A stretch of DNA of 64,000 nucleotides, from NCBI GenBank assembly GCA_964291415.2, contig OZ219917.1:192001-256000 (forward strand), read 5' to 3'. Source of the DNA: Alphaproteobacteria bacterium (GTDB lineage: Bacteria > Pseudomonadota > Alphaproteobacteria > SP197). Within the stretch, counting starts at the first letter, position 1. Each line of letters opens with the position of its first letter. Both the position numbers and the translations under genes were made by a program. The notes beneath the pieces are model-generated. The model was not told where the DNA came from, made no database searches, and saw only the letters and a program-made list of their open reading frames with translations. Below are positions 431 through 22,992 of the stretch, in pieces.

Positions 431-2365
431 GTGCGCCGTTCCTGCCTTGCCGTCCTGGCGGTCGTTCTCGGCACGATCGTCCCGGCGCAGGCTGACATTC
501 CTCCCCTGGGCGAGGACGACCTCGCCCGCTACCAGTCCGCCTTCTACCACGCCAAGAAGAACCAGTGGCGCGATGCGGCGATCTGGGCCTCCAGGGCCTC
601 CGATCCCGTGCTTGTCGACGTCATCGGGTGGATGCGGATGAAGGACGACTGGCGGGCCCCCTTCCACGACATCCAGGCTTTCCTGGAAACCCATCCTGAC
701 TGGCCGTCGCAGGACATGCTGCGCCGCAACGCCGAGGGCGCCATGCCGGACGCTCTCGAGAGCGGCGACGTGATCGCCCACTTCACGCGATGGCCGCCGC
801 TCACCGACCGGGGCATCCTGCGCCATGTCGAGGCCCTCCTCGATACCGGCCGCGAGAGCGAGGCCCGTGCGGCGGTCCTCGATGCCTGGCGGCACCACAC
901 GTTCAGGACATCGGATGAACGGACCTTTCTCAGGAGGTACGGCGCCTGGCTTCAACCCGAGGACCATCGGACGCGCGTCGACCGGCTGATCTGGCAGGGC
1001 GACACCGCCGCGGCGCGGCGCATTCTCCCCCGCCTCAAGGACGACGGGCTCGCCGCTCTGGGCGAGGCGCGCATACGCCTGAAGAACCGGGAATGGGGCG
1101 TGGACGCCGCGATCGCCGCGGTCCCGGCGCATCTCGTCGATGACGAGGCACTGCTCTTCGAGCGTGCCGACTGGCGCCTGGGCAGGGGGCGCCATGACGC
1201 TGCGCTGGAACTCGTTCTGCGCCTGCCGCGCGACATCGACCAGCCGGACCGGTGGGCTTTCCAGCGGCTTCGCATTGCCGGCGACCTGATGGCCAGGGGC
1301 GACATGGCCGGGGCTTATGATGTCGTGGCCGATCATCGCCGCCTCCATGGCGCCTTTCACCATCGCGCCGAGTGGCTGGCCGGCTGGATCGCCTTGCGCC
1401 GTCTCGACGACCCCGTCACCGCGCTCGGGCATTTCTCCTGGTTCCATGACCGGGTCAGCCTGCCGATCAGCCTGGCGCGCGGGGCCTACTGGAGCGCCAG
1501 GGCCGCGGAAGCGAGCGGCGATGCGGCGCTGGCCCGCGACTGGTTCAGCCGGGCAGCGGAGCACCCGCAGACCTTCTACGGACAGCTTGCCGCCATGCGC
1601 CAGGGCATCGACGTCACCCTGCCGGCGCCGCCCGTCATCGCCCGGACGGCCTCCGGAAACGGGCTCTTCACGGTTGTCCGCCGGCTGACCGAGGTCAAGG
1701 AATGGCGCCTCGCCGAGACCTTCCTGCAGCACATGGCCAAGAGGACCGAATCGGCTGAAGACCTGGAGGCCATCGCCGCCACCGCACTCGATCTCGAACT
1801 GCCCCACGCGGCCGTCAGGGTGGCGAAGACGGCGGCCGGCAAGGGCGTGGTGATGCCGGCGGCCGGCTATCCCGTCATCGCCCTGCCGGAGACCGGGAGC
1901 ATCGATGCCGACCTGGTGCTGGCCGTCATCAACCGCGAGAGCGAGTTCAACAGGCGCGCCGTCTCGGGCAGCGCGGCCTATGGTCTCATGCAGCTCCGCC
2001 TCGCCACCGCCCGCGCGACCGCCGCGCGGCTGGGTGTCGAGACATCGCGTGAACTGCTTCTCGGGAACTCCCGGCACAACATCAGGCTGGGCACCGCCTA
2101 CCTCAACCGGCTGATCGGAAGCTACCGCGGCTCCCTCGTTCTGGCCCTTGCCGCCTACAACGGCGGATCGGGAAACGTGGGCGTGTGGGTCAGGCGGTCG
2201 GGACGTCCCGACGATGCGGACGTCGATGCCATCGACTGGATCGAGAACATTCCCTTCCGCGAGACGCGAAACTACGTCCAGCGCGTGATCGAGGCCATGC
2301 AGGTCTATCGCATGCTGCGCGGCGAGAAACCCGTCGACCTCTTCCCGGCGACGGGAAGCTCCTGA
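431..2365 (+). CDS. Soluble lytic murein transglycosylase (Slt70-like)
   Basis: Signal peptide and helical repeat region. SLT motifs RESEF, GLMQL, AAYNGG and IPFRETRNYVQRV. Confidence 0.93.
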   Translation: MRRSCLAVLAVVLGTIVPAQADIPPLGEDDLARYQSAFYHAKKNQWRDAAIWASRASDPVLVDVIGWMRMKDDWRAPFHDIQAFLETHPDWPSQDMLRRNAEGAMPDALESGDVIAHFTRWPPLTDRGILRHVEALLDTGRESEARAAVLDAWRHHTFRTSDERTFLRRYGAWLQPEDHRTRVDRLIWQGDTAAARRILPRLKDDGLAALGEARIRLKNREWGVDAAIAAVPAHLVDDEALLFERADWRLGRGRHDAALELVLRLPRDIDQPDRWAFQRLRIAGDLMARGDMAGAYDVVADHRRLHGAFHHRAEWLAGWIALRRLDDPVTALGHFSWFHDRVSLPISLARGAYWSARAAEASGDAALARDWFSRAAEHPQTFYGQLAAMRQGIDVTLPAPPVIARTASGNGLFTVVRRLTEVKEWRLAETFLQHMAKRTESAEDLEAIAATALDLELPHAAVRVAKTAAGKGVVMPAAGYPVIALPETGSIDADLVLAVINRESEFNRRAVSGSAAYGLMQLRLATARATAARLGVETSRELLLGNSRHNIRLGTAYLNRLIGSYRGSLVLALAAYNGGSGNVGVWVRRSGRPDDADVDAIDWIENIPFRETRNYVQRVIEAMQVYRMLRGEKPVDLFPATGSS

Positions 2366-2402
2366 CCATGACGTGCCATCCGGCGAGCGAAGGACCCGAC
2401 CC

Positions 2403-3009
2403 ATGACCGAAGAAGCAGCTCAACATCATCGATCGCACGCCCCTCGACATGCTGACAAGCCGCCGCTCGGTCCTCGCCGCACGGCTGGCCGAACCGGGCC
2501 CGGACGAGACGGAACTGGCACGCATGCTGGAGGTGGCGGTGCGGGTTCCCGACCACGGACGCGTCACGCCATGGCGCCTGCAGGTCCTCACGCGGCAGGC
2601 GCAGCAGGAACTGGGAGACGCCTTTGCCAAGGAGTTCACGAGGCAGAACCCGGGGGTCCCGGAGGATCGTCTGCACCTCGAGTGGATTCGCCCGCAGCGC
2701 TCTCCGGTCCTCGTCATCGTCTCCAGCCGCATCGTGCCGGACCGCGAGGGCGTCCCTCCGGTCGAGCAGCTGCTGTCGTGCGGCAACGTCTGCTTCAACC
2801 TGCTGCATGCGGCGACGGCCCTGGGCTACGGCGCCCAGTGGGTCACCAACTGGCCGGCCTACAACGAGAACATCAAGGCCGTGCTCGGCATTCCGCCCGA
2901 CGACCACCTGGTCGGCTTCGTCCACATCGGCACCCCGAAGGGTCCTCCCCAGGAACGCCAGCGCCCGGAGATCACCGACGTGGTCTCGCACCTCGACAGC
3001 CTTCCCTGA
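2403..3009 (+). CDS. Nitroreductase family protein (YdjA-like)
   Basis: SRRS, VPDHG..PWR and GYGAQWVT motifs. ORF from 2449; the ATG at 2403 joins it through an apparent 1-nt indel near 2410. Confidence 0.9.
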
Positions 3010-3021
3010 CAAGTCTCAAGG

Positions 3022-3045
3022 GCTGCCCCGCCATAGCGGGGCGGC
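3022..3045 (+). terminator. GC-rich hairpin, possible terminator
   Basis: gctgccccgc-cata-gcggggcggc, a 10-bp stem just after the nitroreductase stop. No U-tract. Confidence 0.45.
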
Positions 3046-3134
3046 TGCAAGGGTGATGCCCGCCGCAATCTCCCGCTCGGGCAGTTTGATTTCGTTGGCA
3101 AGAGATTCCTTGCCAAGAGTTCCGAACTTATGCG

Positions 3135-3326
3135 CTACTCCAGCGGGGCTGGGTTTACGCACCGGGCCCTGGGTCTTTCCTCAGGGCCAATCGGGAACCA
3201 CGCCGAGTCGTCCTCGTCGTCAGAAAACCAACTGCATGTGGCATCGCCATCCTCGTCAAGGTGGTGACAGTCATGAGGGGGCCACCCGATCCGGCGAACG
3301 GTGTCACCCAGAACAATATCACTCAT
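3135..3326 (-). pseudogene. YodC/DUF2158-like small protein, frameshifted
   Basis: Reads across frames as MSDIVLGDTVR..SGGPLMTV..DEDGDATCSWF....AWFP. Confidence 0.65.
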
Positions 3327-3852
3327 CGTCGATTCTTCCATTGCCTCGGTCACATTTCTTCTTTTCATCTCTTATTTGGGGGCCACGGTTGACGGTGGAG
3401 AAGTTCGCTCTTGCCACCTGCTCCTTGTCATGCCCGGGTGACAATGCTGGAATCAATCCTGCCAAAATGCAGGTGCCCGTCCTCTCGGGCCACCCGTCGA
3501 ATATTGCGGTCCCGGATCGGTATGGGATCGCTCTTCATGACTTGGCGAATTAGGCGAGAACTAACCGCACCGATGTATGATGCACCGCGATACGGCATCG
3601 GCTTGCTGCTGGAAATGACGGCGTCAGTTGATCCACAATCAGGGGCTCATGCCATCGCGCCAACGGATCCTCAATCCACGCCTCCGCCGCCGCGCGGGAA
3701 ATCTGGATGGACCGTCTCTCCCGGTAGGACCGCCCAAGTTCAATGCTTGGCCTCCCGCCATTGGCAAGCACTGCGCCAAATCACGGACGGTGTCGGAATC
3801 GGCGTTGCCAGTGAATGAGACACTACGCCTGCCCGAAAATGGGACCGAAGAC

Positions 3853-4433
3853 ATGTGCCAAAATGAATTGCCCCTGATCCTCCCATGAAGTCGGAACGCC
3901 TGATCCATCAGACGGGCGACTGACGGCTACATCAACGCCACGGCCATGTGCCAAGCAGTGGGGCGCCCTTGGAATCGATAGACCGGGGGTCAACTCAGGA
4001 CGTCAGGCCGATACCGGTATTCCGGCCTGCAGTTAGAGGTGGCGTCCCAGACTTATGCACATGGGTTCACCCGCATGCACTTGGTCAATGGCTTTCGCCT
4101 CAGTTCGCCGTTCACGGTCAAGTGGGTATTCGAGTGGCTCAACGGTCAGGCAGGAGGTTGCGGCTTCCCGATCAGGCGTACTTGGGACAAGATGCCTCCA
4201 TCGATCTGGACCGAAGGTCACGGCATCTCCACCGTGCCTTGGGCCAGTTCTCTCGGCTCCGAGCAGAGCGCCAGCTTCCCAACTTACCAGCACGAGTTTC
4301 TCGACCATCCCACCGTCGATGCACGCCGTATCCCAACGAAGTGATGACCGAGTTCAACGCAACAATCGCTGAGAAATGGGCGGCTGTCCGGCAGAAAGCG
4401 CGACCAAGCCTCCCTCGAACCCCATCCAGTTAA
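3853..4433 (+). pseudogene. KilA-N domain DNA-binding protein, multiply frameshifted
   Basis: Fragments MCQNELPLI, ATDGYINATAMCQAVG, TWVHP..LGQWLSPQFAV and KWVFEWLNG. Confidence 0.8.
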
Positions 4434-4552
4434 GCCTAAATCAGGTCTGCTGGAAGGCCGCATTAGTCCCAAAATATTGCCAAGGGACGACTGTCCCGAG
4501 CGGAACCTAACTGCCTCGACCGCCGAAGACGGGGACGAGGCCGCACCGTGCT

Positions 4553-6031
4553 TCATGCCGTCGAAGATCGTAGGAAGAGCCGAAGGCGGCATCTCCACCG
4601 TCGGCCAGCGATCGGCAGCGCCGCCCGGACCTCTTGATCGAGGCGCGTATCCACCGTCACGAGGTCGCCGCCGCTGACATCGATCCGCGGCGTGTGATAG
4701 GCCCCCTCCAGCGTCATGCCGTAATCGACGAGCAGCGACACGAGCTGGAAGATCGCCGGGAAGATGCGGCGGCCACCGGATGCTCCGAGCGCCACGTTGC
4801 CAGCCGGCGATCCCGTCACGATGGTGGGGCACATGTTCGAGAGCGGCTGCCGGCCGGGCGCCATGGAGTTGGGCCGGCCGGATCTCGGATCAAACCACAT
4901 CACACCGTTGTTCATGAGGAGGCCCGTGCGGGGCAGCATGACGCGGCTGCCGAAGACGGAGAGCAGGGTCTGGGTGAGGGCGACCATGTTGCCGTTCCGA
5001 TCAACCACACTGAGGTGCGTCGTGGAACCCTTGCCTTCGGCCCAGCCCATGGTGGCGAGGCGGTGACGATAGGCGGCAAAAAGCGTGTCGGCCCAGGCCT
5101 CGAAGCCGGACGCATCGGGAGCCGACCCTTGCGCACTCCACGAGGCGGCGAGACGGGAGAGCGCATCGATGAGTGTCGGTCCGGCGTTGAGTCCGGGTGG
5201 AACGTTGATCCGGGCACCGCGGTAGGTGTCACGCAACGCCGGTGCGATCGTCGCCTCGCAGCGCCGGAGATCCTCGAGGCCGACCCGTGATCCCGCCTCC
5301 TCGAGATCGGCGACGAGGAGACGGGCGAGATCGCCGTGATAGAAGTCTTGAGCCCCGGCATCGCGCAGCCGTTCCAGGGAGGCGACAAGGGCCTCGTTTT
5401 CGAGAATCGCGAGATCGTCCTGTTCAACGCTCGCCGCCGGCAGACCCCCAGGCAAGAAATGGTCGCGGCTGGTCTGGTAGGCCGCCAGGCCGCGCGCCTC
5501 GAGGGCGATCCTCAGGGTGGTGTGCCAGTCGACCTTGAGACCCCTCTTCGCAAGGTCGATGGCGGGAGCGAGGACTTCCGAAAGCGGCATGGTGCCGAAG
5601 CGCTCGAGGGCGGCGGCCATGCCGGCGGCCTGGGTCGGAACGGCGATCGAGAGCGGCCCCTGGACGTTGCGGTCGTCCTTCACCCGGGGCCAGCCGAAGA
5701 GATCGTCGTCCGCGCCACCGTCTTCCTCGACGGGATAGTCCGCAGGATCGAGGGCCAGCGGGGCACGCGTGTGAAAGTCGACCGCGTGACAGTCGCCGCC
5801 TTCGGCGTCGAGGACCATCATGTAGCCGCAACCGCCCAGCCCGCTCATCCACGGTTCGACCACGCCCAGCGCGAAGCTCGTCGCCACCGCGGCATCGACC
5901 GCGTTGCCTCCGGCCTTGAGGACTTCCGCGCCGACAGCCGACGCCTCGTAGTGCTGGCTGGCGACCACGCCCTCCCGGCTGGCAACGGCCGGCTTGGTGA
6001 TGCGCCAGGTCTCCTCAAGTGTCCACGTCAT
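4553..6031 (-). CDS. Gamma-glutamyltransferase family protein
   Basis: GGNAVDAAVA, EPWMSGLGG, TTHLSVVD (Thr nucleophile) and GASGGRRI motifs. The extreme C-terminus appears frameshifted near 4620. Confidence 0.93.
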   Translation of the reverse strand: MTWTLEETWRITKPAVASREGVVASQHYEASAVGAEVLKAGGNAVDAAVATSFALGVVEPWMSGLGGCGYMMVLDAEGGDCHAVDFHTRAPLALDPADYPVEEDGGADDDLFGWPRVKDDRNVQGPLSIAVPTQAAGMAAALERFGTMPLSEVLAPAIDLAKRGLKVDWHTTLRIALEARGLAAYQTSRDHFLPGGLPAASVEQDDLAILENEALVASLERLRDAGAQDFYHGDLARLLVADLEEAGSRVGLEDLRRCEATIAPALRDTYRGARINVPPGLNAGPTLIDALSRLAASWSAQGSAPDASGFEAWADTLFAAYRHRLATMGWAEGKGSTTHLSVVDRNGNMVALTQTLLSVFGSRVMLPRTGLLMNNGVMWFDPRSGRPNSMAPGRQPLSNMCPTIVTGSPAGNVALGASGGRRIFPAIFQLVSLLVDYGMTLEGAYHTPRIDVSGGDLVTVDTRLDQEVRAALPIAGRRWRCRLRLFLRSSTA

Positions 6032-7458: not shown

Positions 7459-10400
7459 ATGTACTTCGATCGTCGACTGTGGGCGTTCACCGAAGGGGTG
7501 CGCGGCCGCATGGCATTCTCCGTCATCGTCGGACTCGCCGCGGCATGCGTCGGCGTCGCCCGCCTTGCGCTCCTTGGCTGGCTGATCGCCCTGGTGTTCG
7601 AGGGCCGCCCCTTCGCGGAGCTCGTGATGCCGATGGCCATCGTCGCCGGCGTCATGGTGGCCCGCGGACTGCTGGAGTACGTCAGGGTCATGGTCGCCCA
7701 CGAAACGGCGGCCCGCGTCCAGATCGCCATCCGCAAGACAATCTACGACAAGGCCGTCATCCTGGGGCCCGCCTGGTTCGGTCAGCAGCGCACCGGGGAC
7801 GTGGTGCTCTCGGTGGTCGACGGCGTGGAACAGCTCGAGACCTACTTCGGCGAGTTCCTTCCCACCCTGCTGATCGCCATCGTCACGCCGGTCGCCATCT
7901 TCGCCTTCGTCGCCTTTCTCGACCTGCCGGTCGCCGCCGTCCTCGTCACCGGGGCCATCCTCGCTCTCGTCCTGCCGATGGCCTTCCACCGCCTCGACTA
8001 CCAGGCGAGCATCAACCGCTCGCGGGCCTACGGCGAGTTCGGCGCCGAGTTCCTCGATGCCGTGCAGGGCCTTGCCACGCTCAAGGCCTTCGGCCAGAGC
8101 ACGGCCAGGGCCGTGGCCCTGGCAGCGAAGGCGAAGGCTCTCGCCTTCGGCACGCTGTGGGTGACCGCGGTCAATTCTCTGGGCCGCGGCATCACCGATG
8201 CCTCGATCGCCGTCGCCGCAGCCGCCGCGCTGGGCTACGGCGCCTGGCGCGTCGAGGCCGGTCTCATGGAGCTTTCCACGCTTCTCATCGTGCTGATGAT
8301 GGGGGTCGAGCTCTTCCGCCCCTTGCGCGACATGAGGACCCAGCTTCACACCGGCATGCTCGGCCAGTCGGCGACCGAGGCCATTTTCCGGGTTCTCGAC
8401 GCACGCCCCCTCGTCGACGAGCCGGCCACCCCCGAACCGGCATCCAACGACGGCACCGCCGAGGGCCTTGCCTTCAGGGACGTCACCTTCACCTATCCAG
8501 GCGAAGCGGACGCCACCCACGAGGGCCTCTCGTTCTCCCTTGCGAAGGGGGAGAGCGTCGGCGTCGTCGGACCGTCAGGCGCAGGCAAGTCCTCCATCGT
8601 GCGCCTGCTGCTGCGGTTCTGGGATCCTGAAGGAGGGTCGATCACCATCGGCGGCCGCGACATCCGGACCATGGCAAGCGACGATCTCCGCCGGCAGATC
8701 GCGGTCGTCAACCAGGACACCTACCTCTTTCACGGCACCGTCGAAGACAATCTGAAGTTCGGCAAGCCCGATGCGACTGAAGCCGAGATGGAGGAAGCCT
8801 GCCGCCTCGCCAACGCCCACGACTTCATCTCCGCCCTGCCGTCCGGCTACCAGACGGTGGTCGGCGAGCGCGGCATCAGGCTCTCCGGCGGCCAGCGCCA
8901 GAGAATCGCCATCGCCCGCGCGGTGCTGCGCGACGCGCCCATCCTCGTGCTCGACGAGGCGCTCTCGGCCATCGATGCCGAGAACGAGGCGGTCATCCAG
9001 CAGGCGCTGTTCCGCCTCATGCAGGACCGCACGACGCTCATCCTCGCCCATCGCCTGTCCAGCGTCATCCGGGCCGACCGGATCCTTGTCCTGGGCGAGG
9101 GAAGGGTCGTCGAGGAGGGACCCCACGACGATCTCATGGAGCGCCGCGGCGTCTACTTCTCGCTCATGCACGAACAGGCCTCCGAGCCGCTGGCGAGGAG
9201 CGACGACTTCATCACGGCGGGCGAGGAGACGGCGTCCGCGGAAAGGGACCGGGACATGGCGGCCCGCGCTGCCGCCGAGGCCGAGCCGACCCACGGCATC
9301 CTGCGCGCCGAGGGCCTGGGCTGGGCGGGTGCGACGGAGGTCCTTCTCTCCTTCGTCTCCAGCGAGCGCCTGCGCCTGCTGGCGACCTTCATCTTTGGCG
9401 TGAGCCGCGTCGTCAGCTTCATCGGCGTCGGCGTTCTCTCCGCCCTCGTGGTGGCGCGCATCGCCAACGGGGAAGACTGGTCCGGGCTCCTGGTCTGGCT
9501 TGCCGTCGCAGCGCCGCTCGCCGGAGTGCTGCACTGGCTCGAATCGTGGTTCGCCCACGACATGGCGTTTCGCCTGCTGGCGCGCATGCGGATCAGGCTC
9601 TTCGACAAGATCGACAGCCTGGCGCCGGCCTACCTCCTGCGCAGGCGCACCGGCGATCTCTCGGCCATGGCCACCCAGGACATCGAGACCATCGAATCGT
9701 TCTACGCCCACACCGTGGCGCCGGCCTTCGTTGCGGTCCTCACCCCTGCCATCGTGATCGGTGTCCTGGTGTCGTTCGGCTGGCCCATGGCGCTGGCCCT
9801 CGTTCCCTTCCTCGCCATCGTCGCGCTCTCTCCGGTCATGCTGCGCGGCCGCCTCGATCGCCTGGGTTCGCAAGCCCGCGAGGCGCTGGGCGAACTCAAC
9901 GCCTTCACCGCCGATTCGATCCAGGGCCTGGGCGAAATTCTGGCCTTCCGCCAGATCCGCGAACGCCGTGGCAGCTTCGTCGCCATTGCCGAGGCGGTCT
10001 ACCAGGCGCGTCTCCCCTTCTTCCGCGACCTCACGGTCCAGATGGCCATCCTCGAGGTGGCGACGGGCCTGGGCGGCCTGGCGATCATCGTCACCGGCGC
10101 CGCCATGGTGACCGCAGGCCAGCTCGACGGCAGCCTGCTTCCCTTCTTCACGCTGCTCGCCATGGCGTCCTTCCTGCCGGTGAGCGAGATCGCCCACGTC
10201 GGCCGCCAGCTCGCCGATACCCTGGGCGCAGCGCGGCGCCTCCACGCGGTCGACCGCGAACCCGTGACCATCGCCGACGGACCCGGCATCCAGTCAAAAC
10301 GCACCAGCGGCGGCGCTGCGATCACCCTCGAGAACGTCTCCTACACCTATCCCGGCCGCATCGAGCCCGCCGTCGCAGACGTCGACCTCGCAATTCCAGC

Positions 10401-11055
10401 CGGTTCCACCGTGGCCCTCGTCGGCCCCAGCGGCGCCGGCAAGACGACCATGGCCCACCTCCTGATGCGGTTCTGGGACTGCGACCAAGGCCGCATCACC
10501 CTCGACGGCGACGACATCAGGGACTACCGCCTCGACGACTTGAGATCCCGCACGGCCCTGGTGGCCCAGGACACCTTCCTCTTCAACGACACCCTCAAGG
10601 CCAACATCCTGATCGCCCGCCCGGACGCCAGCGACGATGACCTCACCGAAGCCATCGCCAACGCCTCCCTCGACGATGTCGTCTCAAGCCTCAGGGACGG
10701 CCTCGACACCCGCCTCGGAGAGCGTGGCGCCCGGCTTTCCGGCGGCCAGCGCCAGCGCGTCGCCATCGCCCGCGCCTTCCTGAAAGACGCCCCGATCCTC
10801 ATTCTCGACGAGGCCACAAGCCACCTCGACGCCGTCAACGAGATGGCCGTCCGCCGCGCCCTCACCAGGCTCATGACCGACCGCACGACACTCGTCATCG
10901 CCCACCGCCTCTCCACCATCCGCAACGCCGACATCATCGTCGCCATGGAGAACGGCCGCATCGTCGAACAGGGAACCCACGACGAGCTCGCATCATCCGA
11001 CGGCCTCTACTCCCGCCTCGTCCGCCACCAGATGGCCACCGCCCGCGCCGCTTGA
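7459..11055 (+). CDS. Fused ABC exporter (TMD-NBD-TMD-NBD), CydDC-like
   Basis: Two transmembrane domains, two GPSGAGK Walker A motifs, two LSGGQRQR signatures and two LDEA Walker B motifs. Confidence 0.92.
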   Translation: MYFDRRLWAFTEGVRGRMAFSVIVGLAAACVGVARLALLGWLIALVFEGRPFAELVMPMAIVAGVMVARGLLEYVRVMVAHETAARVQIAIRKTIYDKAVILGPAWFGQQRTGDVVLSVVDGVEQLETYFGEFLPTLLIAIVTPVAIFAFVAFLDLPVAAVLVTGAILALVLPMAFHRLDYQASINRSRAYGEFGAEFLDAVQGLATLKAFGQSTARAVALAAKAKALAFGTLWVTAVNSLGRGITDASIAVAAAAALGYGAWRVEAGLMELSTLLIVLMMGVELFRPLRDMRTQLHTGMLGQSATEAIFRVLDARPLVDEPATPEPASNDGTAEGLAFRDVTFTYPGEADATHEGLSFSLAKGESVGVVGPSGAGKSSIVRLLLRFWDPEGGSITIGGRDIRTMASDDLRRQIAVVNQDTYLFHGTVEDNLKFGKPDATEAEMEEACRLANAHDFISALPSGYQTVVGERGIRLSGGQRQRIAIARAVLRDAPILVLDEALSAIDAENEAVIQQALFRLMQDRTTLILAHRLSSVIRADRILVLGEGRVVEEGPHDDLMERRGVYFSLMHEQASEPLARSDDFITAGEETASAERDRDMAARAAAEAEPTHGILRAEGLGWAGATEVLLSFVSSERLRLLATFIFGVSRVVSFIGVGVLSALVVARIANGEDWSGLLVWLAVAAPLAGVLHWLESWFAHDMAFRLLARMRIRLFDKIDSLAPAYLLRRRTGDLSAMATQDIETIESFYAHTVAPAFVAVLTPAIVIGVLVSFGWPMALALVPFLAIVALSPVMLRGRLDRLGSQAREALGELNAFTADSIQGLGEILAFRQIRERRGSFVAIAEAVYQARLPFFRDLTVQMAILEVATGLGGLAIIVTGAAMVTAGQLDGSLLPFFTLLAMASFLPVSEIAHVGRQLADTLGAARRLHAVDREPVTIADGPGIQSKRTSGGAAITLENVSYTYPGRIEPAVADVDLAIPAGSTVALVGPSGAGKTTMAHLLMRFWDCDQGRITLDGDDIRDYRLDDLRSRTALVAQDTFLFNDTLKANILIARPDASDDDLTEAIANASLDDVVSSLRDGLDTRLGERGARLSGGQRQRVAIARAFLKDAPILILDEATSHLDAVNEMAVRRALTRLMTDRTTLVIAHRLSTIRNADIIVAMENGRIVEQGTHDELASSDGLYSRLVRHQMATARAA

Positions 11056-11225: not shown

Positions 11226-12488
11226 ATGAGAGACCGTAACTTGCTATTCTACGAAGAGGATTTGGACGCGCAGCTTCGAGGGCGACAGGAAACTGTTCCC
11301 GAAGCTGTTGACCGGATACCGAAAGATCAATTCCTAGTCTCAAACGATCAGGAATTGGTCGACCATGTGGTCGCTAGAATGACGGTAGAGCCACTCGTTC
11401 TACGCGAAAACGCAATGGTCATGAGTCAAAACGAAACGCAGGTGGATGTTTCTGGCGATTCTATGCGGGTGTTTATGTCCAATCGCAGTGGACCACTTTA
11501 CGTTCCGGGAACTCGCGTGGACATCGACATTCCCTTCACGGGAGAAGAGTGGATTTTCCAGTATCGGACCAACCCGTGGTCCTTGGTGCTCCCGCGCGCG
11601 GAAGTCCGACAGGGTCAATTGCGCCTCTGTATTTCGCAGCCGCACGACGCCGATCCCGCCAATTTCAGGTCGATTTACGATCGGGAGTTGAATCTGATTC
11701 GAGAGTACGTGGACCACTCACACAAGCAGGTGGTTGATTATAACGAGAGTCTGCCCAACTTGGTGCAGCGGTCGGTCAATAATCGTCGTGACCGACTTGG
11801 ACGTCATAGTAACATCGCGGGCTTGCTTGATATACCCTTAGCCACGCAACCTGGCGCACCTTCCATTGAGCCAGTGAAGGTGGAAATCCGGCGTCCTCCA
11901 GCTTTGCCCCAGGTGCCGAAGGCGGGTCTTATGCCAGAGCCGGGGATCACAGACGAGACCTACGGGCATATCCTTCAGTTCATTCGACACCAAGGACGCA
12001 CGTTTGAGCGGACGCCCAACACCTATGCCGTGCACGGTGAAGAAGACTTGCGCAACATCATATTGGCGCAGTTAAACGGGCACTTTCGTGGTGATGCCGT
12101 GGGTGAGGTGTTTCGAGGTAACGGCAAGACAGACATCTGCATCGAACAGGACAATCGCGCGGCCTTCGTGGGAGAATGCAAGATGTGGACGGGTGCAGCA
12201 GGCCTCATCGTAGCGATGGATCAGCTTCTCGGCTACCTGACTTGGCGTGATAGTAAAGCCGCCTTGATCATGTTCAACGTGAAGAACAAGGACTTCACCA
12301 AAGTCCTCAACGCAGTGCCCGAGACGCTTCGCGCTCATCCACTGTTCCTGCGTGATTTGGCTTGTTCCGAAGCCGGGGAATGGAGGGTGGAGATGCGTAG
12401 CGTCGAGAATGAGGGGCGGCGTGTCACTGTTCAGGCGTTTGTCTTCAACTTGTTCCAGGCTAGTGGTGTACGGACACGAGCGCTCTAA
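11226..12488 (+). CDS. Hypothetical protein with C-terminal PD-(D/E)XK nuclease-like domain
   Basis: EEDLR...GKTDI...FVGECKMW...DQLLGY restriction-endonuclease-fold motifs. Intact 420 aa with atypical codon usage. Confidence 0.7.
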   Translation: MRDRNLLFYEEDLDAQLRGRQETVPEAVDRIPKDQFLVSNDQELVDHVVARMTVEPLVLRENAMVMSQNETQVDVSGDSMRVFMSNRSGPLYVPGTRVDIDIPFTGEEWIFQYRTNPWSLVLPRAEVRQGQLRLCISQPHDADPANFRSIYDRELNLIREYVDHSHKQVVDYNESLPNLVQRSVNNRRDRLGRHSNIAGLLDIPLATQPGAPSIEPVKVEIRRPPALPQVPKAGLMPEPGITDETYGHILQFIRHQGRTFERTPNTYAVHGEEDLRNIILAQLNGHFRGDAVGEVFRGNGKTDICIEQDNRAAFVGECKMWTGAAGLIVAMDQLLGYLTWRDSKAALIMFNVKNKDFTKVLNAVPETLRAHPLFLRDLACSEAGEWRVEMRSVENEGRRVTVQAFVFNLFQASGVRTRAL

Positions 12489-12513: not shown

Positions 12514-13159
12514 CTAGGTTGTTGCTGTGTTGTTGATGCTGTCAACGGATGAGACCATTCTGAAGCTATGCGCCGTCACTAGGCCTTGCTTCACCTTCTT
12601 GAATTCGCTGAACACCCTGAGCGCGAGTGCGAGATAATCCTCTTGTGGCGGGCCAAGTTGGTCCAGAATAGCTCTGCAGACCGCAACGACGTTCGCAGTG
12701 GTGTTGGGACATTTTGCGGAAAGTGTTAGGCACGTGCTGTTGAGGTCGGCGAACAAAACTGGCGCCTGCGCCCCCGGGATCAGCGACGACCGACGCGTCA
12801 ATTGGATGGAGCGCACCCGCTGAGGCCGATGGTTTCTTCCCCAGTCCGAAGTCCTCGCCATGATCTACCTCCCGCGTGCAGAACCCGTGCATCACGAACC
12901 CCACATCTATTGGTCATGACGATAGTGTTTAGTCACCTGCAGAGACCAGGCGGATGGCGCATCTGTCACCAGTACGGTATTCAAAGAACGCATTCAACCA
13001 ATACATCGCAATTGTCTCTATGATGCTGCGAACACCCGCATCGAGCACCTGGCTCACGATCGATTTCCGGAAACCGCAACGACTCCTGCCGTGTACCTTG
13101 TGGTACAGTAGCAGCCACTCGACAAGATATTGGGGGGGGAATGAATCAAAGGACAACAA
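12514..13159 (-). pseudogene. Degraded SagB/nitroreductase-like gene
   Basis: Only the KPSASAGALHPID motif is recognisable. The region is broken into short ORFs. Confidence 0.35.
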
Positions 13160-13364
13160 GGAGCGCCCACCACTTGGTATACCGTCTCTACTCGGCTAGG
13201 ATACCTCTTGAACTTGTGGCGCTGACTGCCTAAATTTAACCATGCTCACTTTGTTTGGCCCAAATGATGCCTTGTAAGACAATGGTGCTTCCAATTCTGT
13301 GTTTGCGCAGGACGAAAACTCTAAATCAAGTTGATCTCTTACTCTCTTCTTTTGCGATACTACT

Positions 13365-14324
13365 ATGCCCAAACATCAGACTACTCGCGAGCCTCCGGAA
13401 TTCAATCACATTGAACCGGTAGAAGGAGATCTACTCTCCGATGAACCTGATGCCTTGCTCCGCACCCACCGGAAGTTGCAACTTGCAATTCTTCGACTTC
13501 GGAAGAATGTGGATAAGGGGAATGCCCTTATCGACTTCCGCAACTGCGAAGAAATAGATCCTGGCGGTTTGCTGCTAACAATGTATGCAGTCTTTCCGCT
13601 TCTCAGAGATAACCAGCTGTCTCTCTGGTATCGGAGTCGCGGCGCTGTAAGGGCGTATCTCCTAGAAAACATAGACCATTATCGTCAACGACGATCCGCC
13701 CATAGCAATAATCGCTCAGACGACTTTCTACTTCGTCGAATAAAAACAAGAGAAGCTATGGTCAATGACCTCAATCAGTATGCTTCATCCCTTAGACAAG
13801 CATCTCTTATCTCGAGTCGCGAAGTCGCAATATGGGAAACACAAGTTGGCGAACTCACAACCAACGGATTTCAACATGGAAACGCTCTCAGGGACGATCC
13901 GCAAGAACGCGATCTAGTTATGAATCTTGTAGCCGGCAAGGCATATGAAGAAAAAGGTAGAGTTGAAATGGGTGTACTAGACTTTGGCGCCGGCATTCCT
14001 CGTGTAATTGAGCGAGTGGCACCTGATACAGTGCGTGCAAAAGGAGACGGTCAATTAATAGCGTACGCGCTCAGAAAAGGAATAACTTCCCGAACGGTTA
14101 TCGAGAATCAAGGAGCGGGGCTTCATGGAATTGTGGATGCCGTCAAGGAAAATGGGGGGCGTCTCCTACTCTTCTCTGGCGGAGGCTTGGTATGCGTAAA
14201 GAATGGTCGTGTCTCAAGCAGAAAAATCAATGACAGGTGTAACCAACCGACACTAGAAGGCACCTTGGCAATTATAATTCTTAATTTACAGGGGGGAGTG
14301 GCGCAATGTCACAAACAATATTAG
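13365..14324 (+). CDS. STAS-like domain plus GHKL/HATPase (RsbW-like kinase) protein
   Basis: N-terminal IDFRNCEEIDPGGL (STAS-like). N box GELTTNGFQHG, G1 DFGAGIP, G2 GITSR..NQGAGL and C-terminal GT. Confidence 0.8.
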   Translation: MPKHQTTREPPEFNHIEPVEGDLLSDEPDALLRTHRKLQLAILRLRKNVDKGNALIDFRNCEEIDPGGLLLTMYAVFPLLRDNQLSLWYRSRGAVRAYLLENIDHYRQRRSAHSNNRSDDFLLRRIKTREAMVNDLNQYASSLRQASLISSREVAIWETQVGELTTNGFQHGNALRDDPQERDLVMNLVAGKAYEEKGRVEMGVLDFGAGIPRVIERVAPDTVRAKGDGQLIAYALRKGITSRTVIENQGAGLHGIVDAVKENGGRLLLFSGGGLVCVKNGRVSSRKINDRCNQPTLEGTLAIIILNLQGGVAQCHKQY

Positions 14325-14611
14325 CTTCTGAGATTGTGGATCACCGTTTTCCACCAGAGGAAGGAGCAGAGTTGGCAAGAACATTGCTTCAACAGGACTT
14401 AGAATGGGACGATCTCACCGTCGATCTTAAGGGTCTACCAGCCAGCCTTCTGATTTCCGCTTTCTTTAATGGCTTTCTTGCAGTCATTACTTCCGACCGA
14501 CCGGAGCTTCTGCCGAAGGCGAAGAAAATACGATGGCAGTTGGACTATGACTTCCAAAGGGAGAATGTCGCTCGGTGGATGAGAGGGTTTTCGGGCATCC
14601 AATTGGAGTGA
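14306..14611 (+). CDS. DUF4325-like STAS domain protein
   Basis: EEGAEL...LTVDLKGL...ISAFFNGFL pattern. Overlaps the upstream gene and has a GGAG RBS. Confidence 0.75.
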   Translation: MSQTILASEIVDHRFPPEEGAELARTLLQQDLEWDDLTVDLKGLPASLLISAFFNGFLAVITSDRPELLPKAKKIRWQLDYDFQRENVARWMRGFSGIQLE

Positions 14612-14617
14612 TGTCAG

Positions 14618-15472
14618 ATGACTTGTCATGTTGCGTTTTCGAGTGACGTTGGTGCAGTTTTGTTTTCGGACAGCCAGCTGTCTACGGACAAGACAGGATA
14701 TCACGGCTTTCAGAAGCAGTTCGTTGGCGACGATTTCCTGCTTGGGGGGTCCGGAAACAGTTTGGTTATCGAAGAGGTCTTTAAATCGCTGAGAGATTCT
14801 ACAACGGGGGTGTGCACTGTCGATGGCGGGACAGTGGCGAATCACATTGTAGCGTTTTTGCAAAGGAACGTTAGTAGGCCGGCTGCTGCCGGCACAAACT
14901 TTATCTTGATATGCCTAAATCAGAGCGGCAAGCCAAGAATTAGGATTCTATACCCTTCCACGTTTGACTTTTTCATCTCAAGAGATCACTTCGGCACGCT
15001 GGGATCTGGATCTGAGCTCGTGAGTTCTGCGATTGAGAGAGATAGAATGCTGGGCCTTTTTCGACAGCCCTTAGAGTTGGTAGACATGATAGTGGCGGGA
15101 GAAAATTATCTTGATGCTGCCACGAAAAGTCTCACCGTTGATTCACAGTTCACTGTGGGAGTGCTCCGATCGAAAAGAGCGTATCTAATGGGTGATGTGC
15201 GAATTACAATGCAATATGCACCACCAGCGATCGCAGCGAAGTGGAATAGCGCTTCGAAATTGTATGAAGCAATTCTGGCTCATGCTCAACAGATTCGAGG
15301 AGAAATTCGAGAAGCACAGCGAGTGTTGTCCAAAGTTCAAGTTGCTCAATTAGACAAAGCTGCAGTTTCCGCAATTGAGGCAAGCCAAGTCTCAGTGAGT
15401 CAAAATAGACAGGCGCTTCATGCAAAAATCGAAAGTTACTTAAATTGGTATGATAGGTTGCTGAACCGCTGA
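14618..15472 (+). CDS. Proteasome-beta/HslV/Anbu-like Ntn hydrolase with C-terminal helical extension
   Basis: After Met removal: T1, D17-S18, K32, S44-G45 and G128-S129-G130-S131. The last ~80 aa are amphipathic and helical. Confidence 0.8.
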   Translation: MTCHVAFSSDVGAVLFSDSQLSTDKTGYHGFQKQFVGDDFLLGGSGNSLVIEEVFKSLRDSTTGVCTVDGGTVANHIVAFLQRNVSRPAAAGTNFILICLNQSGKPRIRILYPSTFDFFISRDHFGTLGSGSELVSSAIERDRMLGLFRQPLELVDMIVAGENYLDAATKSLTVDSQFTVGVLRSKRAYLMGDVRITMQYAPPAIAAKWNSASKLYEAILAHAQQIRGEIREAQRVLSKVQVAQLDKAAVSAIEASQVSVSQNRQALHAKIESYLNWYDRLLNR

Positions 15473-19249: not shown

Positions 19250-20110
19250 TCACAAATCTATTTTATCGTTGACGAGCCGGAATCAGAAAGCGCCATCGTC
19301 TGTACACCACGCTTGTTCGCAGAATCGCAGCAAAATTTCTGATCACCATGCGTTCCAACTGCACTCTGTGTATCCTCAGTGCATCCGGCAAAACATCGTA
19401 TCGGTAAAAGTTCCAGTCTCTGATTGAAGGATGTCCCGCTCTAAATCTTTGGATCAACTGTCTGCCTCACCAATGTAGAAGAGTTTCTTGTTTGTATCAA
19501 TCAACATGTAAATGACATTTTCTGCTCCGATCTCGGATTCGAAATCGTCGCGTGAACACCAGTCCTGTTTGTAGATACGAATGGTGTTCTTGTTGGCCAA
19601 TTCGTCATCGATCCGTTTAAGGGTTGGCGAGTATGTGAGTCGACGGAATAACTCCGGGAATGTCGGAGTTTGAGTGTAGTGGGCGGTCATGCGAACCGTC
19701 TTCGACTCTTTGTCGAATTCGATGTCGAGGAATTCCCAAAATGGTATATCCCTTTCGATGTCGGAGTCGGTATCTGGCCGCAGACGGCTTTCGATGTCGC
19801 GCATGAAAGTCATAAGGAATACTTCTTTAAGTTCATTCTTTAAATCATCACCAAACCACATGCGGTAAACCTTGTTGGCGCGATTTTTGGGCCAAGTACA
19901 CGTTACCTGACCGGCGTATCTTTTCTTGTTAAAGTTGATCGAGAATGTCGATCCTTCGTCCTCCTTTCCCATTAGACCGGGGAAGACCTCGTCAAGGTTC
20001 CAGACTTTGCATACCCACATGGGAACAGTCGTTCCCTTATGTTGAAACAAGGAGGGTCAACCTTCTTGCGCCAGAGTGGAAAATCGACATTGGGTTCGTT
20101 CTCTTGGCAT
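19250..20110 (-). pseudogene. GIY-YIG nuclease domain protein, frameshifted
   Basis: N-terminus MPRERT-NVDFPLWRKKVD-SLFQHKGT. C-terminus VIYMLIDTNKKLFYIGEA..LIQRF...LERMVI. Confidence 0.75.
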
Positions 20111-20909
20111 TTAACACCTCTCAGCGATGGGGGTCGCAGGCTAACTGCTTAACCCGACCGCACTCCGGTCAAACAAACACACTTCGAGAACGCCTTTGAC
20201 GCCGTTGATATGAACAGGGTTGGTGATGTATCGAACTGAGGCTCACTCGGCACTCTTGAAGCAACAGCTTAGGAGAGCCGCCAACCTGAGGCGACAGTGA
20301 TAAGACTGTTCCGCAGGTCATGGGACCAGCACTTGGTGCCGCCAGCCTCCTAATACGGGGCTGGAGAAGGTGCGGGTCTTGGACATGGCGGTGGGCGCCG
20401 GTGCCCAAGAGGAACATTCAATCGCGAGCATGAGTCGAGTAGTTGCTCGCCTCGACTCTGCGGCGTTCAGGATTGACCGAGAACTGCCGGGCAACCGGGA
20501 ATTCCAAGAGTACATCAGCCTTTTGTTGCTTGGTTGGATAGCACCTCGGAAACCGAGCAACTTGTCGCCTGGCTGGAATGTATCGATGGTCGGTTGGCGA
20601 CTGTCGTACGTATCCTGGCAGTTCGTATTCCGGGTTTCTCTGACATAGCACCCATATAGGGACGCCCGAAATTTGGTCAACTCAACAATCAATACCAAAA
20701 TGGAAGTGACTGTCTTCCAAAGTCGCAGTTAGTCTTCTGGAGTCAACAGCGAATAATCTTCAACACTCTGAAAACGGCGTGCATGGCAGTTAGATTGCCC
20801 GTTCAGGTAGTTGTTTGTCGCCGCTTAAGAGCGAAATCACTTTCCTGAAGGTCGCAGCCTCAGCTTGCGTTGACGCCTCGTCCAGCTGACGAATGGGAAG
20901 CAGGTGGAA

Positions 20910-22992
20910 TCAAGTGGAGAGGCCGAGGTCGCGTTTCTTGCTGGCGGCCCAGGCCTGGATGATGCGGTCGGCGATCATGGCCATGAGGGCCATGGATCCG
21001 CCGGCGATGACGCCCTGGCCGAACTTGGCGTTGGTGAGGCTGTCGTAGACCCACTGGCCGAGGCCCTTGGTGCCGACGAGGGCGGCGATGACGAGCATGG
21101 CGAGGGCGAACATCACGACCTGGTTGAGGCCGACCATGATCTCGGGGATGGCCAGCGGGAGCTTGACCTTCCAGAGGATCTGCCTCTCGGTGCAGCCCAT
21201 CATCCGGGCGGCCTCGATGGCGACCGGGTCGACGTGGCGGATGCCGTGCTCGGTGTAGCGGATGGCCGGCACGATGGCGTACATGATGATGGCGAGCAGC
21301 GCCGAGAAATCGCCCACCAGGAACACCATCACCACGGGGATGAGGAAGACGAAGAGCGGCATCGTCTGCAGGGTGTCGTTGATCGGCCGCAGGACGGCGG
21401 AGACGCGGTCGTTCTGCGCCGCCCAGATTCCTAAGGCCCCGCCGGCCACGAAGCAGATGATGACCGAGGTGGCGGTGAGATAGAACGACAGCATGGCCCT
21501 GTGGCCAGGCGCCGCTCACCAGCATGAAGATCATGCCGAGGAAGGCGAAGAGGGCAACCCTCCAGCCGCCGACCTGGAAGGCGATCAGGGTGACGGCGGC
21601 GATGAAGACGGGCCACGGCGTTCCGGACGAACCGTAGTAGAAGAGGATGCCCAGGAGCGCTGTGGCGACGGCGGCGCGCCAGCCGCCCAGCCGTGCCGCC
21701 AGGGAGCCGATGGCCACCAGGATCATCCAGTAGATGACGGACGCCAGCGCCGTCATCTCGAAGCCCCACGAGGTGGGCCGGGCAATCCTCTCGAGGCCCG
21801 CCTTCATGGGCAGCATGAAGAAATAGAGCGTATAGGTCTTGATGGCGTCCGTGGTGTCGAAGAAGTTGCGGGTGAACCAGGAGACCGCGGTGTTGAGTCT
21901 CTCGGCAGGATCGATGATCCATGCCTCGGGATAGGCGCTGAACACCGGCACCGCCCACGAGAGCAGCGTGCCGGCGGCGACCGCCGCTGCCATGGAGACA
22001 AGCATGGGATGCCGCGCGATGTAGTTGCCCGAACGACGCACGTGGATCTCTCCCGTTCGTTCGGCGAAGCCGCGGCTGATGCGGTCCATCATCATGGCGA
22101 TCAGCACGATGACCAGTCCGGCGAGGAGACTCTGGCCGGTCTGGGCCTTGCGCATCGTGGAGAGCACCTCCCAGCCGATATCGGCGAAGCCGCCGATGAT
22201 GGCGGCGATGATCACCATGGCGAGTGCCGCCATGATGGTCTGATTCACGCCGATCATGATCGTGTGCATCGCTGCCGGAACACGCACCATGAAGAGGAGC
22301 TGGAAACCGTTGCAGCCGGACATCTGACCGCTCTCGATGACATTGTCGGGAACCCTTTGGAGCCCCAGCATGAGGTTCCTCACCATGGGCGGGCTGGCGT
22401 AGATTGCCGAGGCCACCATGCCGACCACGGGCCCGATCCCGAAGAGAATGAGGATGGGAATGAGATAGGCGAACGTCGGCACCGTCTGCATCACGTCCAG
22501 CGTCGGTTCGATGACGCGCCGGGCCCAGCGGAACTGGAAACCGAGCAGTCCCATGATGAACCCGATCATGACCGAAAGCGGCACGGACATGCAGACCAGC
22601 GCCAGGGTCGACATGCTCTCGTCCCAGTATCCGACGACCACCATGTAGAGAAGCGAGGCGATGCAGAAGGCGGAGAGACGCCAGCCTTTGGCGGCGTAGG
22701 CGATGATCGCCACGATGGCGATCGTGACCGGCCACGGCGATGTCTGCAGCACGGCCTGGATTCCCCTCATCGGCCATTCGAGGGCATCGGAAATCAGGCG
22801 GAAGAGCGGCTTGAAGTTGGCCGTGAACCAGTCCATCAGAAACTCGAGGCCGGCCTCGATGGGAAGAATCCAGCCCGTGGGATACTTGACGAGCCATTTC
22901 GCGTCGTCACGCAGGACGAGGCAGAGGATCGCCAGGACGCCGAAGACCAGCCAGACCAGGAGCCTGGGCGGCAGCAGGCGCGCCGGGTTCAC
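20910..22992 (-). CDS. Glycine betaine/proline-type ABC permease (double ProW domain), one frameshift near 21495
   Basis: MQTVPTFAYLIP and LQTMPLFVFLIP motifs plus EAA loops. The two halves are in different frames. Confidence 0.88.

Follow-up and report, generated by a model that had tools for sequence, protein, structure and literature searches.

What is the function of a proteasome-type protease that is encoded directly behind a serine-kinase-like protein and a small STAS-like protein, in an operon of three genes? The question is posed by positions 13365 to 15472 of a 64,000-nucleotide stretch of contig OZ219917.1 (positions 192,001 to 256,000; GenBank assembly GCA_964291415.2) from an Alphaproteobacteria bacterium, in the following called the window, i.e., the whole stretch of DNA that was analyzed. 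The first gene, g1 (13365..14324, + strand, 319 amino acids), encodes a VapK-like protein with an N-terminal STAS-like and a C-terminal GHKL serine-kinase-like domain, the second, g2 (14306..14611, + strand, 101 amino acids), a small and putatively VapS-like protein that probably is a divergent member of the DUF4325/STAS group, and the third, g3 (14618..15472, + strand, 284 amino acids), an N-terminal nucleophile (Ntn) hydrolase of proteasome-beta fold with an appended C-terminal hairpin. We consider it probable that this locus is a phosphorylation-gated toxin-antitoxin or abortive-infection module of the VapKSC type, with a proteasome-fold threonine protease as effector instead of a PIN nuclease. 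Architecture and logic of such a module have already been published, for VapKSC in 2026, and the new part is the protease effector only.

The three genes are real and form a closely packed unit. A first-pass annotation of this DNA had described three tightly coupled, intact open reading frames (ORFs), and its coordinates hold exactly: g1 and g2 overlap by 19 bp (14306-14324) and g2 and g3 are separated by 6 bp (14612-14617). Read from the sequence, a purine-rich Shine-Dalgarno-like motif GGGGGGAG (14291..14298, + strand) lies within the end of g1, 7 nucleotides 5' of the g2 ATG, and a second one, GGAG (14605..14608, + strand), 9 nucleotides 5' of the g3 ATG. Among 5.8 billion protein clusters we found 25 homologues of g1, 23 of g2 and 33 of g3, with best non-self expectation values (E) ranging from 4.8e-46 to 1.6e-148 across the three genes. 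Moreover, 15 of the 24 g1 matches (the window's own excluded) and 12 of the 23 g2 matches have a longest contig of the same size as that of a g3 match, an indirect sign that the genes are co-located on the same contigs. Scans for promoters and terminators gave results close to shuffle expectation. Family databases were of little help: Pfam and NCBIfam returned no family for g1 or g2, the sole Pfam row for g3 was LPD39 at chance level (E 0.089) with no NCBIfam match, and phmmer searches of the Protein Data Bank (PDB) with the three proteins gave chance-level rows only.

The fold of g3 is clear from its AlphaFold2 model (predicted local distance difference test score, pLDDT, 91.3). An Ntn-hydrolase domain (residues 1-204; 14618..15229, + strand) is followed up to the stop codon by a helical hairpin (residues 205-284; 15230..15472, + strand), which consists of helices 209-242 and 247-281, has a conserved W-Y-D end and is the predicted dock of g2. 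A Foldseek search of the PDB with this model gave 1016 matches at E ≤ 0.001, all of proteasome type, the best being 20S beta subunits (E 6.9e-11). In VIA-align, g3 superimposed on the Thermoplasma 20S beta subunit (6bdf_1) with Z 19.2, a root-mean-square deviation (rmsd) of 2.7 and 188 of 201 residues aligned, and residue 2 of g3 (Thr2, codon 14621-14623) overlays residue 1 (Thr1) of the mature subunit. The Mycobacterium tuberculosis beta subunit (Z 19.0) and Anbu (Z 18.2) followed closely; HslV chains were absent from the 50 VIA-align matches listed for g3 and are not thereby excluded. The proteasome structures matched scarcely cover the hairpin.

The catalytic constellation of g3 is preserved throughout its family. 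We assessed conservation in 90 full-length relatives, i.e., with fragments shorter than 250 residues and a distant group left out. Thr2 is present in all 75 sequences covering this position, Asp18 in 88/88, Lys33 in 89/89, and of the Gly-Ser-Gly motif, Gly129 and Gly131 occur in 90/90 and Ser130 in 89/90. To judge from these sequences the catalytic residues are intact, which is the pattern expected of an active enzyme. HslV exposes its N-terminal threonine by simple removal of methionine. The threonine of g3 likewise stands directly after Met1, with no propeptide, and methionine removal would therefore expose the nucleophile. With the structural matches and the catalytic set in hand, the first-pass assignment of g3 as a proteasome-beta-like Ntn hydrolase is confirmed.

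Sequence profiles place g3 at the margin of known families. It remains below the threshold of PF00227, which gave no match to the window protein at E ≤ 1 and matched two of 27 relatives (best E 0.042). The PHROG family phrog_1040, 'peptidase HslV family', matched at E 5.5e-5, and 23-41% of the members of the nearest ESM Atlas clusters carry PF00227. No PIN domain was found in g3 with Pfam, and PADLOC 2.0.0 had no match for g2 or g3; a ParM-like profile match in the PDB (E 0.16) was taken as chance. An exhaustive g3 profile search of 1.84 billion representatives (50% identity clusters) yielded 79 sequences at E ≤ 1e-30, most of them 260-305 residues long and the rest fragments. We also observed a second, distant Ntn family (P0168-P0204) with proteins of 300-350 residues, which has only the Ntn domain in common with g3. 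Its members mostly start with M-T-N-I-M-A and carry an insertion of 10-40 residues after the first strand. Asp18, Lys33 and Gly-Ser-Gly are retained in this family, the W-Y-D hairpin is not, and none of its proteins passes a Pfam cut-off.

The domains of g1 were assigned on an AlphaFold2 model built from 22 homologues (pLDDT 76.6). Residues 11-107 (13395..13685, + strand) form a STAS-like domain that superimposed on the anti-sigma-factor antagonist 1sbo_A (Z 7.9, rmsd 3.0, 89 of 110 residues aligned). At the place of the phospho-serine of anti-sigma antagonists it has D65-P66-G67-G68, with P66 kept in 20/22 and both G67 and G68 in 22/22 homologues. Residues 118-311 (13716..14297, + strand) form the GHKL ATPase/kinase domain, and its N-box (E163/N167), G1 (D206-x-G208) and G2 (G250-x-G252) residues are each found in 22/22. 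In a wide VIA-align search against representatives, this domain matched SpoIIAB best (1l0o_A; Z 14.0, rmsd 2.5, 138 of 141 residues aligned), with further matches to UsfX (8ih8_C, Z 11.7), RsbW (3ke6_B, Z 11.6; 6m36_A, Z 11.2) and SiaB (6kko_B, Z 10.6). Foldseek found nothing at E ≤ 0.001 for the g1 model, with MlaB (7ch7_E) at E 6.5e-3, and the g1 profile gave only a weak match in the PDB, again to an MlaB STAS domain (E 0.14). On the model, the nearest fold of g1 is that of the partner-switching serine kinases, and the anti-sigma kinase fold is present. GHKL boxes behind a STAS-like domain with DPGG, as originally noted for g1, are thus well founded.

The closest functional pointer for g1 came from kinases that are encoded next to stand-alone DUF4325 genes. 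A comparison of g1 with 13 such GHKL partners gave an hhalign probability of 99.6 (E 7.9e-25) over 253 columns and both domains; this set includes the kinases of two triads with a PIN gene (L008 and L020), and the Escherichia VapK sequence itself lay outside the comparison. In addition, the g1 profile directly matched 12 genes upstream of DUF4325 genes. We therefore place g1 in the VapK-like kinase family. The phage protein family phrog_3364, which is of unknown function, matched g1 over residues 39-289 (E 6.4e-20), and relatives of the kinase are hence carried by phages. PADLOC 2.0.0 gave weak matches of g1 to DrmA (E 5.5e-6, residues 185-289) and SspF (E 0.0066), which we read as common GHKL-like segments and rejected as membership in either family.

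For g2 the evidence is of a different grade. The protein contains the segment L49-I50-S51-A52-F53-F54, and Ser51 (codon 14456-14458) is conserved in 26/26 sequences. It sits in an S-x-F-F-N motif common to VapS-like proteins and aligned with Ser48 of the PIN-linked L008 protein, with a register consistent between alignments. The window g2 matched neither PF14213 (DUF4325) nor any other Pfam family, one of 26 relatives reached PF14213 at E 0.063, and PF14213 had no match anywhere in the window's own genome. A comparison of g2 with 14 stand-alone DUF4325 proteins gave an hhalign probability of 7% (E 0.005), and with the five DUF4325 proteins nearest to the PIN-linked ones, i.e., the VapS-like subgroup, 22.5% (E 9.3e-4). 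Among 402 ORFs around DUF4325 genes, the g2 and g3 profiles found nothing at E ≤ 1; with filters off, two DUF4325 ORFs ranked first for g2 (E 0.008 and 0.18). The nearest clusters by ESM features were also DUF4325 (0.87), which we regard as a lead only. Membership of g2 in the STAS/DUF4325 family is accordingly probable at the sequence level. Of the earlier description as a DUF4325-like STAS protein that keeps a serine (LISAFF), the serine stands firmly and the family name as a probable one, below the PF14213 cut-off.

A model of the g2-g3 complex suggests how the two proteins could be linked. It scored 0.83, compared with 0.01 for the best of three controls. Of 80 solved complexes, 58 attained this mark, and of 110 mismatched pairs, two. 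Runs agreed in at least 98% of contacts, and partner pLDDT was at least 87. To our knowledge there is no solved complex of this kind, and it seems unlikely that the score reflects a memorized structure. The predicted interface comprises g2 residues 15-17, 45-52, 55 and 80-91 and residues 218-270 of the g3 hairpin, and Ser51 is predicted to contact g3 residues 229 and 259. Glu229 of g3 is present in 27/27 sequences of a first alignment and in 80/90 of the wider set. Mean identity is 0.88 at the g2 interface residues compared with 0.54 in the rest of g2. As a prediction, the model supports binding of g2 to the g3 hairpin by its conserved Ser51 face.

The known system nearest to this architecture is VapKSC, which consists of the kinase VapK, the STAS antitoxin VapS and the PIN toxin VapC, as set out in passages of the article by Chambers, Rani, Min, Villa & Corbett (EMBO J 2026, PMC13373217). 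As described there, VapK combines STAS and GHKL kinase domains, VapS is a STAS domain with a short tail, and VapS neutralizes VapC, with the S48E exchange abolishing both binding and neutralization. The operon protected E. coli about 100-fold against one phage, Bas42, and activation by single-stranded DNA (ssDNA) was shown for the related kinase CapK and predicted for VapK (passages of PMC13373217). In both systems, a three-gene operon has the order kinase, STAS protein (a probable one in the case of g2), effector. The first gene encodes a STAS-GHKL kinase, with g1 homologous by hhalign to the DUF4325-partner kinases, and the second protein is small, single-domain and about 100-116 residues long with an invariant serine in the same motif. 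Also, the serine-bearing face of g2 is its predicted contact to the third protein, neither operon includes a phosphatase or sigma factor, and both are located in defence islands. They differ in the third protein, which here is a 284-residue proteasome-beta-fold threonine protease with a hairpin and not a VapC PIN RNase, and in g2, which is too divergent to pass PF14213. The first pass, which knew of no published system built in this way, is out of date on this point, since VapKSC is a kinase-STAS-toxin operon of the same logic.

Other systems share single elements only with the locus. Structurally, the g1 kinase domain comes closest to the partner-switching modules SpoIIAB-SpoIIAA and RsbW-RsbV (Z 14.0 for SpoIIAB, 11.2-11.7 for RsbW and UsfX), and these have a STAS partner with a phosphorylatable serine, whereas here the kinase carries its own serine-less STAS domain and the output is a protease. 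We found no sigma factor or PP2C phosphatase in the three-gene operon or in a Pfam scan of nearby ORFs; a genome-wide phosphatase search was not made. With 20S beta subunits, HslV, Anbu and BPH, g3 shares the fold and the Thr1/Asp17/Lys33/Gly-Ser-Gly constellation, and with HslV also the threonine directly after Met1. Unlike these proteasome homologues, g3 falls below the PF00227 threshold, has a family-specific 80-residue hairpin ending in W-Y-D and is encoded together with a kinase and a STAS-like protein instead of an AAA+ unfoldase or alpha subunits. A term search of PMC13373217, with its Datasets EV1-3 outside the search, found no mention of proteasome, Ntn or HslV. PADLOC 2.0.0, one of the checks proposed in the first pass, returned no named system for the triad. 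Our literature searches, which for VapKSC led to the above article and its preprint, and PADLOC 2.0.0 yielded neither a kinase-STAS module with a proteasome-fold effector nor a proteasome-type protease described as a defence or toxin effector, with the VapKSC Datasets EV1-3 and newer defence catalogues lying outside this search.

The effector slot behind such kinase-STAS pairs is not fixed. Within the phylum of the window, 37 of 401 genomes carry PF14213, and in many of 30 fetched DUF4325 loci a gene for about 300-340 residues is followed by the DUF4325 gene (about 105-130 residues) and then by a third gene. Of nine third-position genes scanned, two encode PIN proteins (L008 and L020), one an HTH protein (L027, where a gap separates it from the DUF4325 gene), and the remaining six stay below the cut-off of every family. 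No family was assigned to a fourth gene, located further downstream in L008, either, and the g3 profile had no match among the 402 ORFs surveyed near DUF4325 genes. The third position after the kinase-DUF4325 pair is thus variable. That HATPase and DUF4325 genes recur in front of a PIN gene had been stated in the first pass; PMC5499597 describes such an arrangement, and the two PIN third genes agree with it. In six loci (L010, L012, L014, L019, L024 and L036), a GHKL-DUF4325 pair precedes a third gene of 147-180 residues that has no Pfam family above cut-off and is negative with the g3 profile. These third genes may be further effectors of the same switch.

The triad is conserved as a unit and sporadic in its distribution. 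In all five loci that we fetched via g1 or g3 relatives, g1, g2 and g3 have the same order and strand, down to 31-37% identity, so that the conservation in other genomes that had been set beforehand as a test was found, with a truncated g3 in one locus (L003). The five loci stem from one Candidatus Foliamicus genome (Gammaproteobacteria) and four metagenomes, and source names on other g1 and g2 matches include Polyangiaceae, Sorangium and Novipirellula. Its own genome has a single copy of the triad, and none was found in 40 relatives, 22 of which belong to the same genus, or in 400 genomes sampled across the phylum. Pattern scans located it once in genome contigs and four times in metagenome contigs, and two scans of viral contigs gave no copy. 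Its GC content is 0.48-0.49 (13001-15000), compared with 0.68-0.69 at 8001-11000, 0.63-0.66 beyond 21001 and 65-69% for the genome, so that the genes are indeed AT-richer than their flanks as first remarked. Sporadic distribution and low GC content point to horizontal acquisition of the triad. We found no transfer RNA gene in positions 1-30000 of the window and no convincing flanking repeats.

Defence genes adjoin the triad in four of the five loci with flanks. In the window, an ORF at 11226-12488 (+ strand, 420 residues), about 0.9 kb upstream of the triad, matched PDC-S54 from end to end (E 8.7e-123), which PADLOC lists as a candidate defence family of single genes. Neither Pfam nor NCBIfam assigned this ORF to a family. 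The triad is neighboured by SoFic in L004 (E 1.6e-107), by a DndB/DpdB-like gene, a GIY-YIG gene, a weak HEPN match and a DDE transposase in L001, and by an operon with JAB and ThiF/E1 (BilD-like) genes in L002. The latter operon (1689-5821, directly upstream of the triad) contains the JAB gene at 2486-3004, the weakly BilD-like ThiF/E1 gene at 3004-4374 and a PF00227 gene at 5033-5821 (E 5.3e-9). Its make-up suggests an operon for ubiquitin-like conjugation that brings along a proteasome-like protein of its own. This PF00227 protein was rejected as a close relative of g3 (hhalign probability 1.7%).

Further features of the low-GC island in the window stand apart from the triad. Between 15500 and 19400, numerous short ORFs follow one another in changing frames, and Pfam matched none of them. 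The ABC permease that flanks the island has its two BPD_transp_1 domains in separate frames (20860-22992 and 20910-21494), so that either the gene is frameshifted or the assembly is in error here. The first-pass impression of broken island neighbours may thus hold for this permease. An intact 198-residue ORF at 19454-20050 (- strand), in an AT-richer part of the island, matched nothing in Pfam, NCBIfam, PADLOC or PHROGs.

How could the module work? In the resting cell, g2 would sit on the C-terminal hairpin of g3 with Ser51 buried against Glu229, and this clamp would silence the protease, most likely because g3 could then not self-assemble or because its hairpin could not carry out a function of its own. 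Activation of g1 would come from a signal of stress or infection, which may be ssDNA if CapK and VapK are a guide, and g1 would then phosphorylate g2 at Ser51. The new negative charge, placed beside Glu229, would eject g2 from g3. Freed g3, with its nucleophile threonine exposed by removal of Met1, could degrade host or phage proteins, and this proteolysis would halt growth or infection. A phosphorylation switch that gates a protease in the slot of a nuclease had been suggested from the first look at the sequence, and it is the reading best supported here, by the homology of g1, the fold of g3, the predicted g2-g3 binding and the defence neighbours. Genes, folds, catalytic residues, gene order, sporadic distribution and defence-island setting are observed and the g2-g3 interface is predicted, while phosphorylation, the signal, inhibition, toxicity and defence enter this reading by analogy only.

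Several observations weigh against this reading. The predicted dock of g2 is the appended hairpin, whereas VapS reaches the active site of VapC; in the model g2 binds far from Thr2, which leaves the mode of inhibition unexplained. HslV-type proteases are weak without an activator, and g3 alone may therefore not be toxic. The assignment of g2 is the weakest of the three, given the weak DUF4325/VapS homology with hhalign probabilities of 7-22%. The invariant Leu71 of g1 aligned with the nearest aromatic residue of the L008 kinase in an alignment read by eye, in which the ssDNA-stacking residue of VapK, F54, was itself not placed, and ssDNA sensing is hence unsupported in g1. In L003 (2257-2808, on a short metagenome contig), g3 stops after about 123 codons with unrelated sequence beyond, which means that the copy is truncated or the assembly broken at this point. 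Finally, the defence neighbourhood rests on five loci only, and in one of them, L005, the sole neighbour is an AAA_25/KaiC-like gene, which is no clear defence gene.

Some of these points would suit other explanations. The locus could be a stress module for regulated proteolysis, with no role in immunity or suicide, in which the switch releases the protease for one or few regulators and the cell survives. We regard this as unlikely, though it is the alternative to be taken most seriously: proteasome-fold proteases normally are housekeeping enzymes, the two scans of viral contigs gave no phage-borne copy, L005 lacks a clear defence neighbour, and the VapKSC authors themselves, in passages of PMC13373217, see the boundary between immune and stress pathways as blurred. 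However, the triad was found in none of the 40 relatives and 400 phylum genomes, lies in a low-GC island with defence neighbours in four of five loci, and has no phosphatase in the operon that could reset the switch. Sporadic spread, low-GC island and defence neighbours are more typical of mobile cargo, be it for defence or a toxin-antitoxin system, than of a core regulatory circuit. With the sign of the interaction reversed, g2 might instead be an adaptor, activator or substrate of g3, which, for example, recruits targets to the hairpin or is degraded once phosphorylated. The predicted site on the C-terminal hairpin, away from the active site, and the usual need of proteasome-type proteases for partner proteins would agree with this; we nevertheless rate it clearly lower than the stress module. 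In VapKSC the STAS protein is the antitoxin and a phospho-mimic releases it, according to passages of PMC13373217, and in our model Ser51 is buried against the acidic and conserved Glu229 of g3, which suggests that phosphorylation would break the complex and not form it.

Two further explanations are very improbable. CapK/CapS pairs stand upstream of diverse immune operons (passages of PMC13373217), and g1 and g2, which resemble them in kinase family and in the logic of a STAS substrate, could thus be a transcriptional controller with g3 as the regulated gene. CapK, however, has an N-terminal helix-turn-helix (HTH) domain and CapS needs its C-terminal winged HTH, neither of which is found here. 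The STAS domain of g1 starts at about residue 11 in the model, with no recognizable HTH in front of it, and the 101 residues of g2 are wholly taken up by one conserved domain, which leaves no room for a winged HTH; moreover, g2 is predicted to bind g3 directly. The three genes are also translationally coupled, which leaves no internal promoter on which such control could act. Equally hard to credit is that g3 is a catalytically dead scaffold and the module acts otherwise. PF00227 does not recognize g3, as a pseudo-protease might lead one to expect, but hardly any of the 90 full-length relatives departs from Thr2, Asp18, Lys33 and Gly-Ser-Gly.

We therefore favour the VapKSC-type module with a protease effector. 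To the most far-reaching form of this reading we give an even chance: g3 would then be the first proteasome-type threonine protease with which a toxin-antitoxin or anti-phage system kills or arrests, and its relatives a new bacterial family of proteasome homologues, controlled by a one-shot kinase/STAS phospho-switch on a dedicated hairpin instead of an AAA+ unfoldase or a gated alpha ring. If true, the kinase-STAS pair would be a general, portable trigger for unrelated effectors, i.e., PIN nucleases, the g3 protease and the family-less third genes of the six triads, and the VapKSC principle would widen from one nuclease system to a modular sensor-switch. Proteasome-fold threonine proteases would join the list of immune or toxin effectors. 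As a minimal, unfoldase-free member of the proteasome family under phosphorylation control, g3 could moreover show how Ntn proteases are gated by allostery or assembly.

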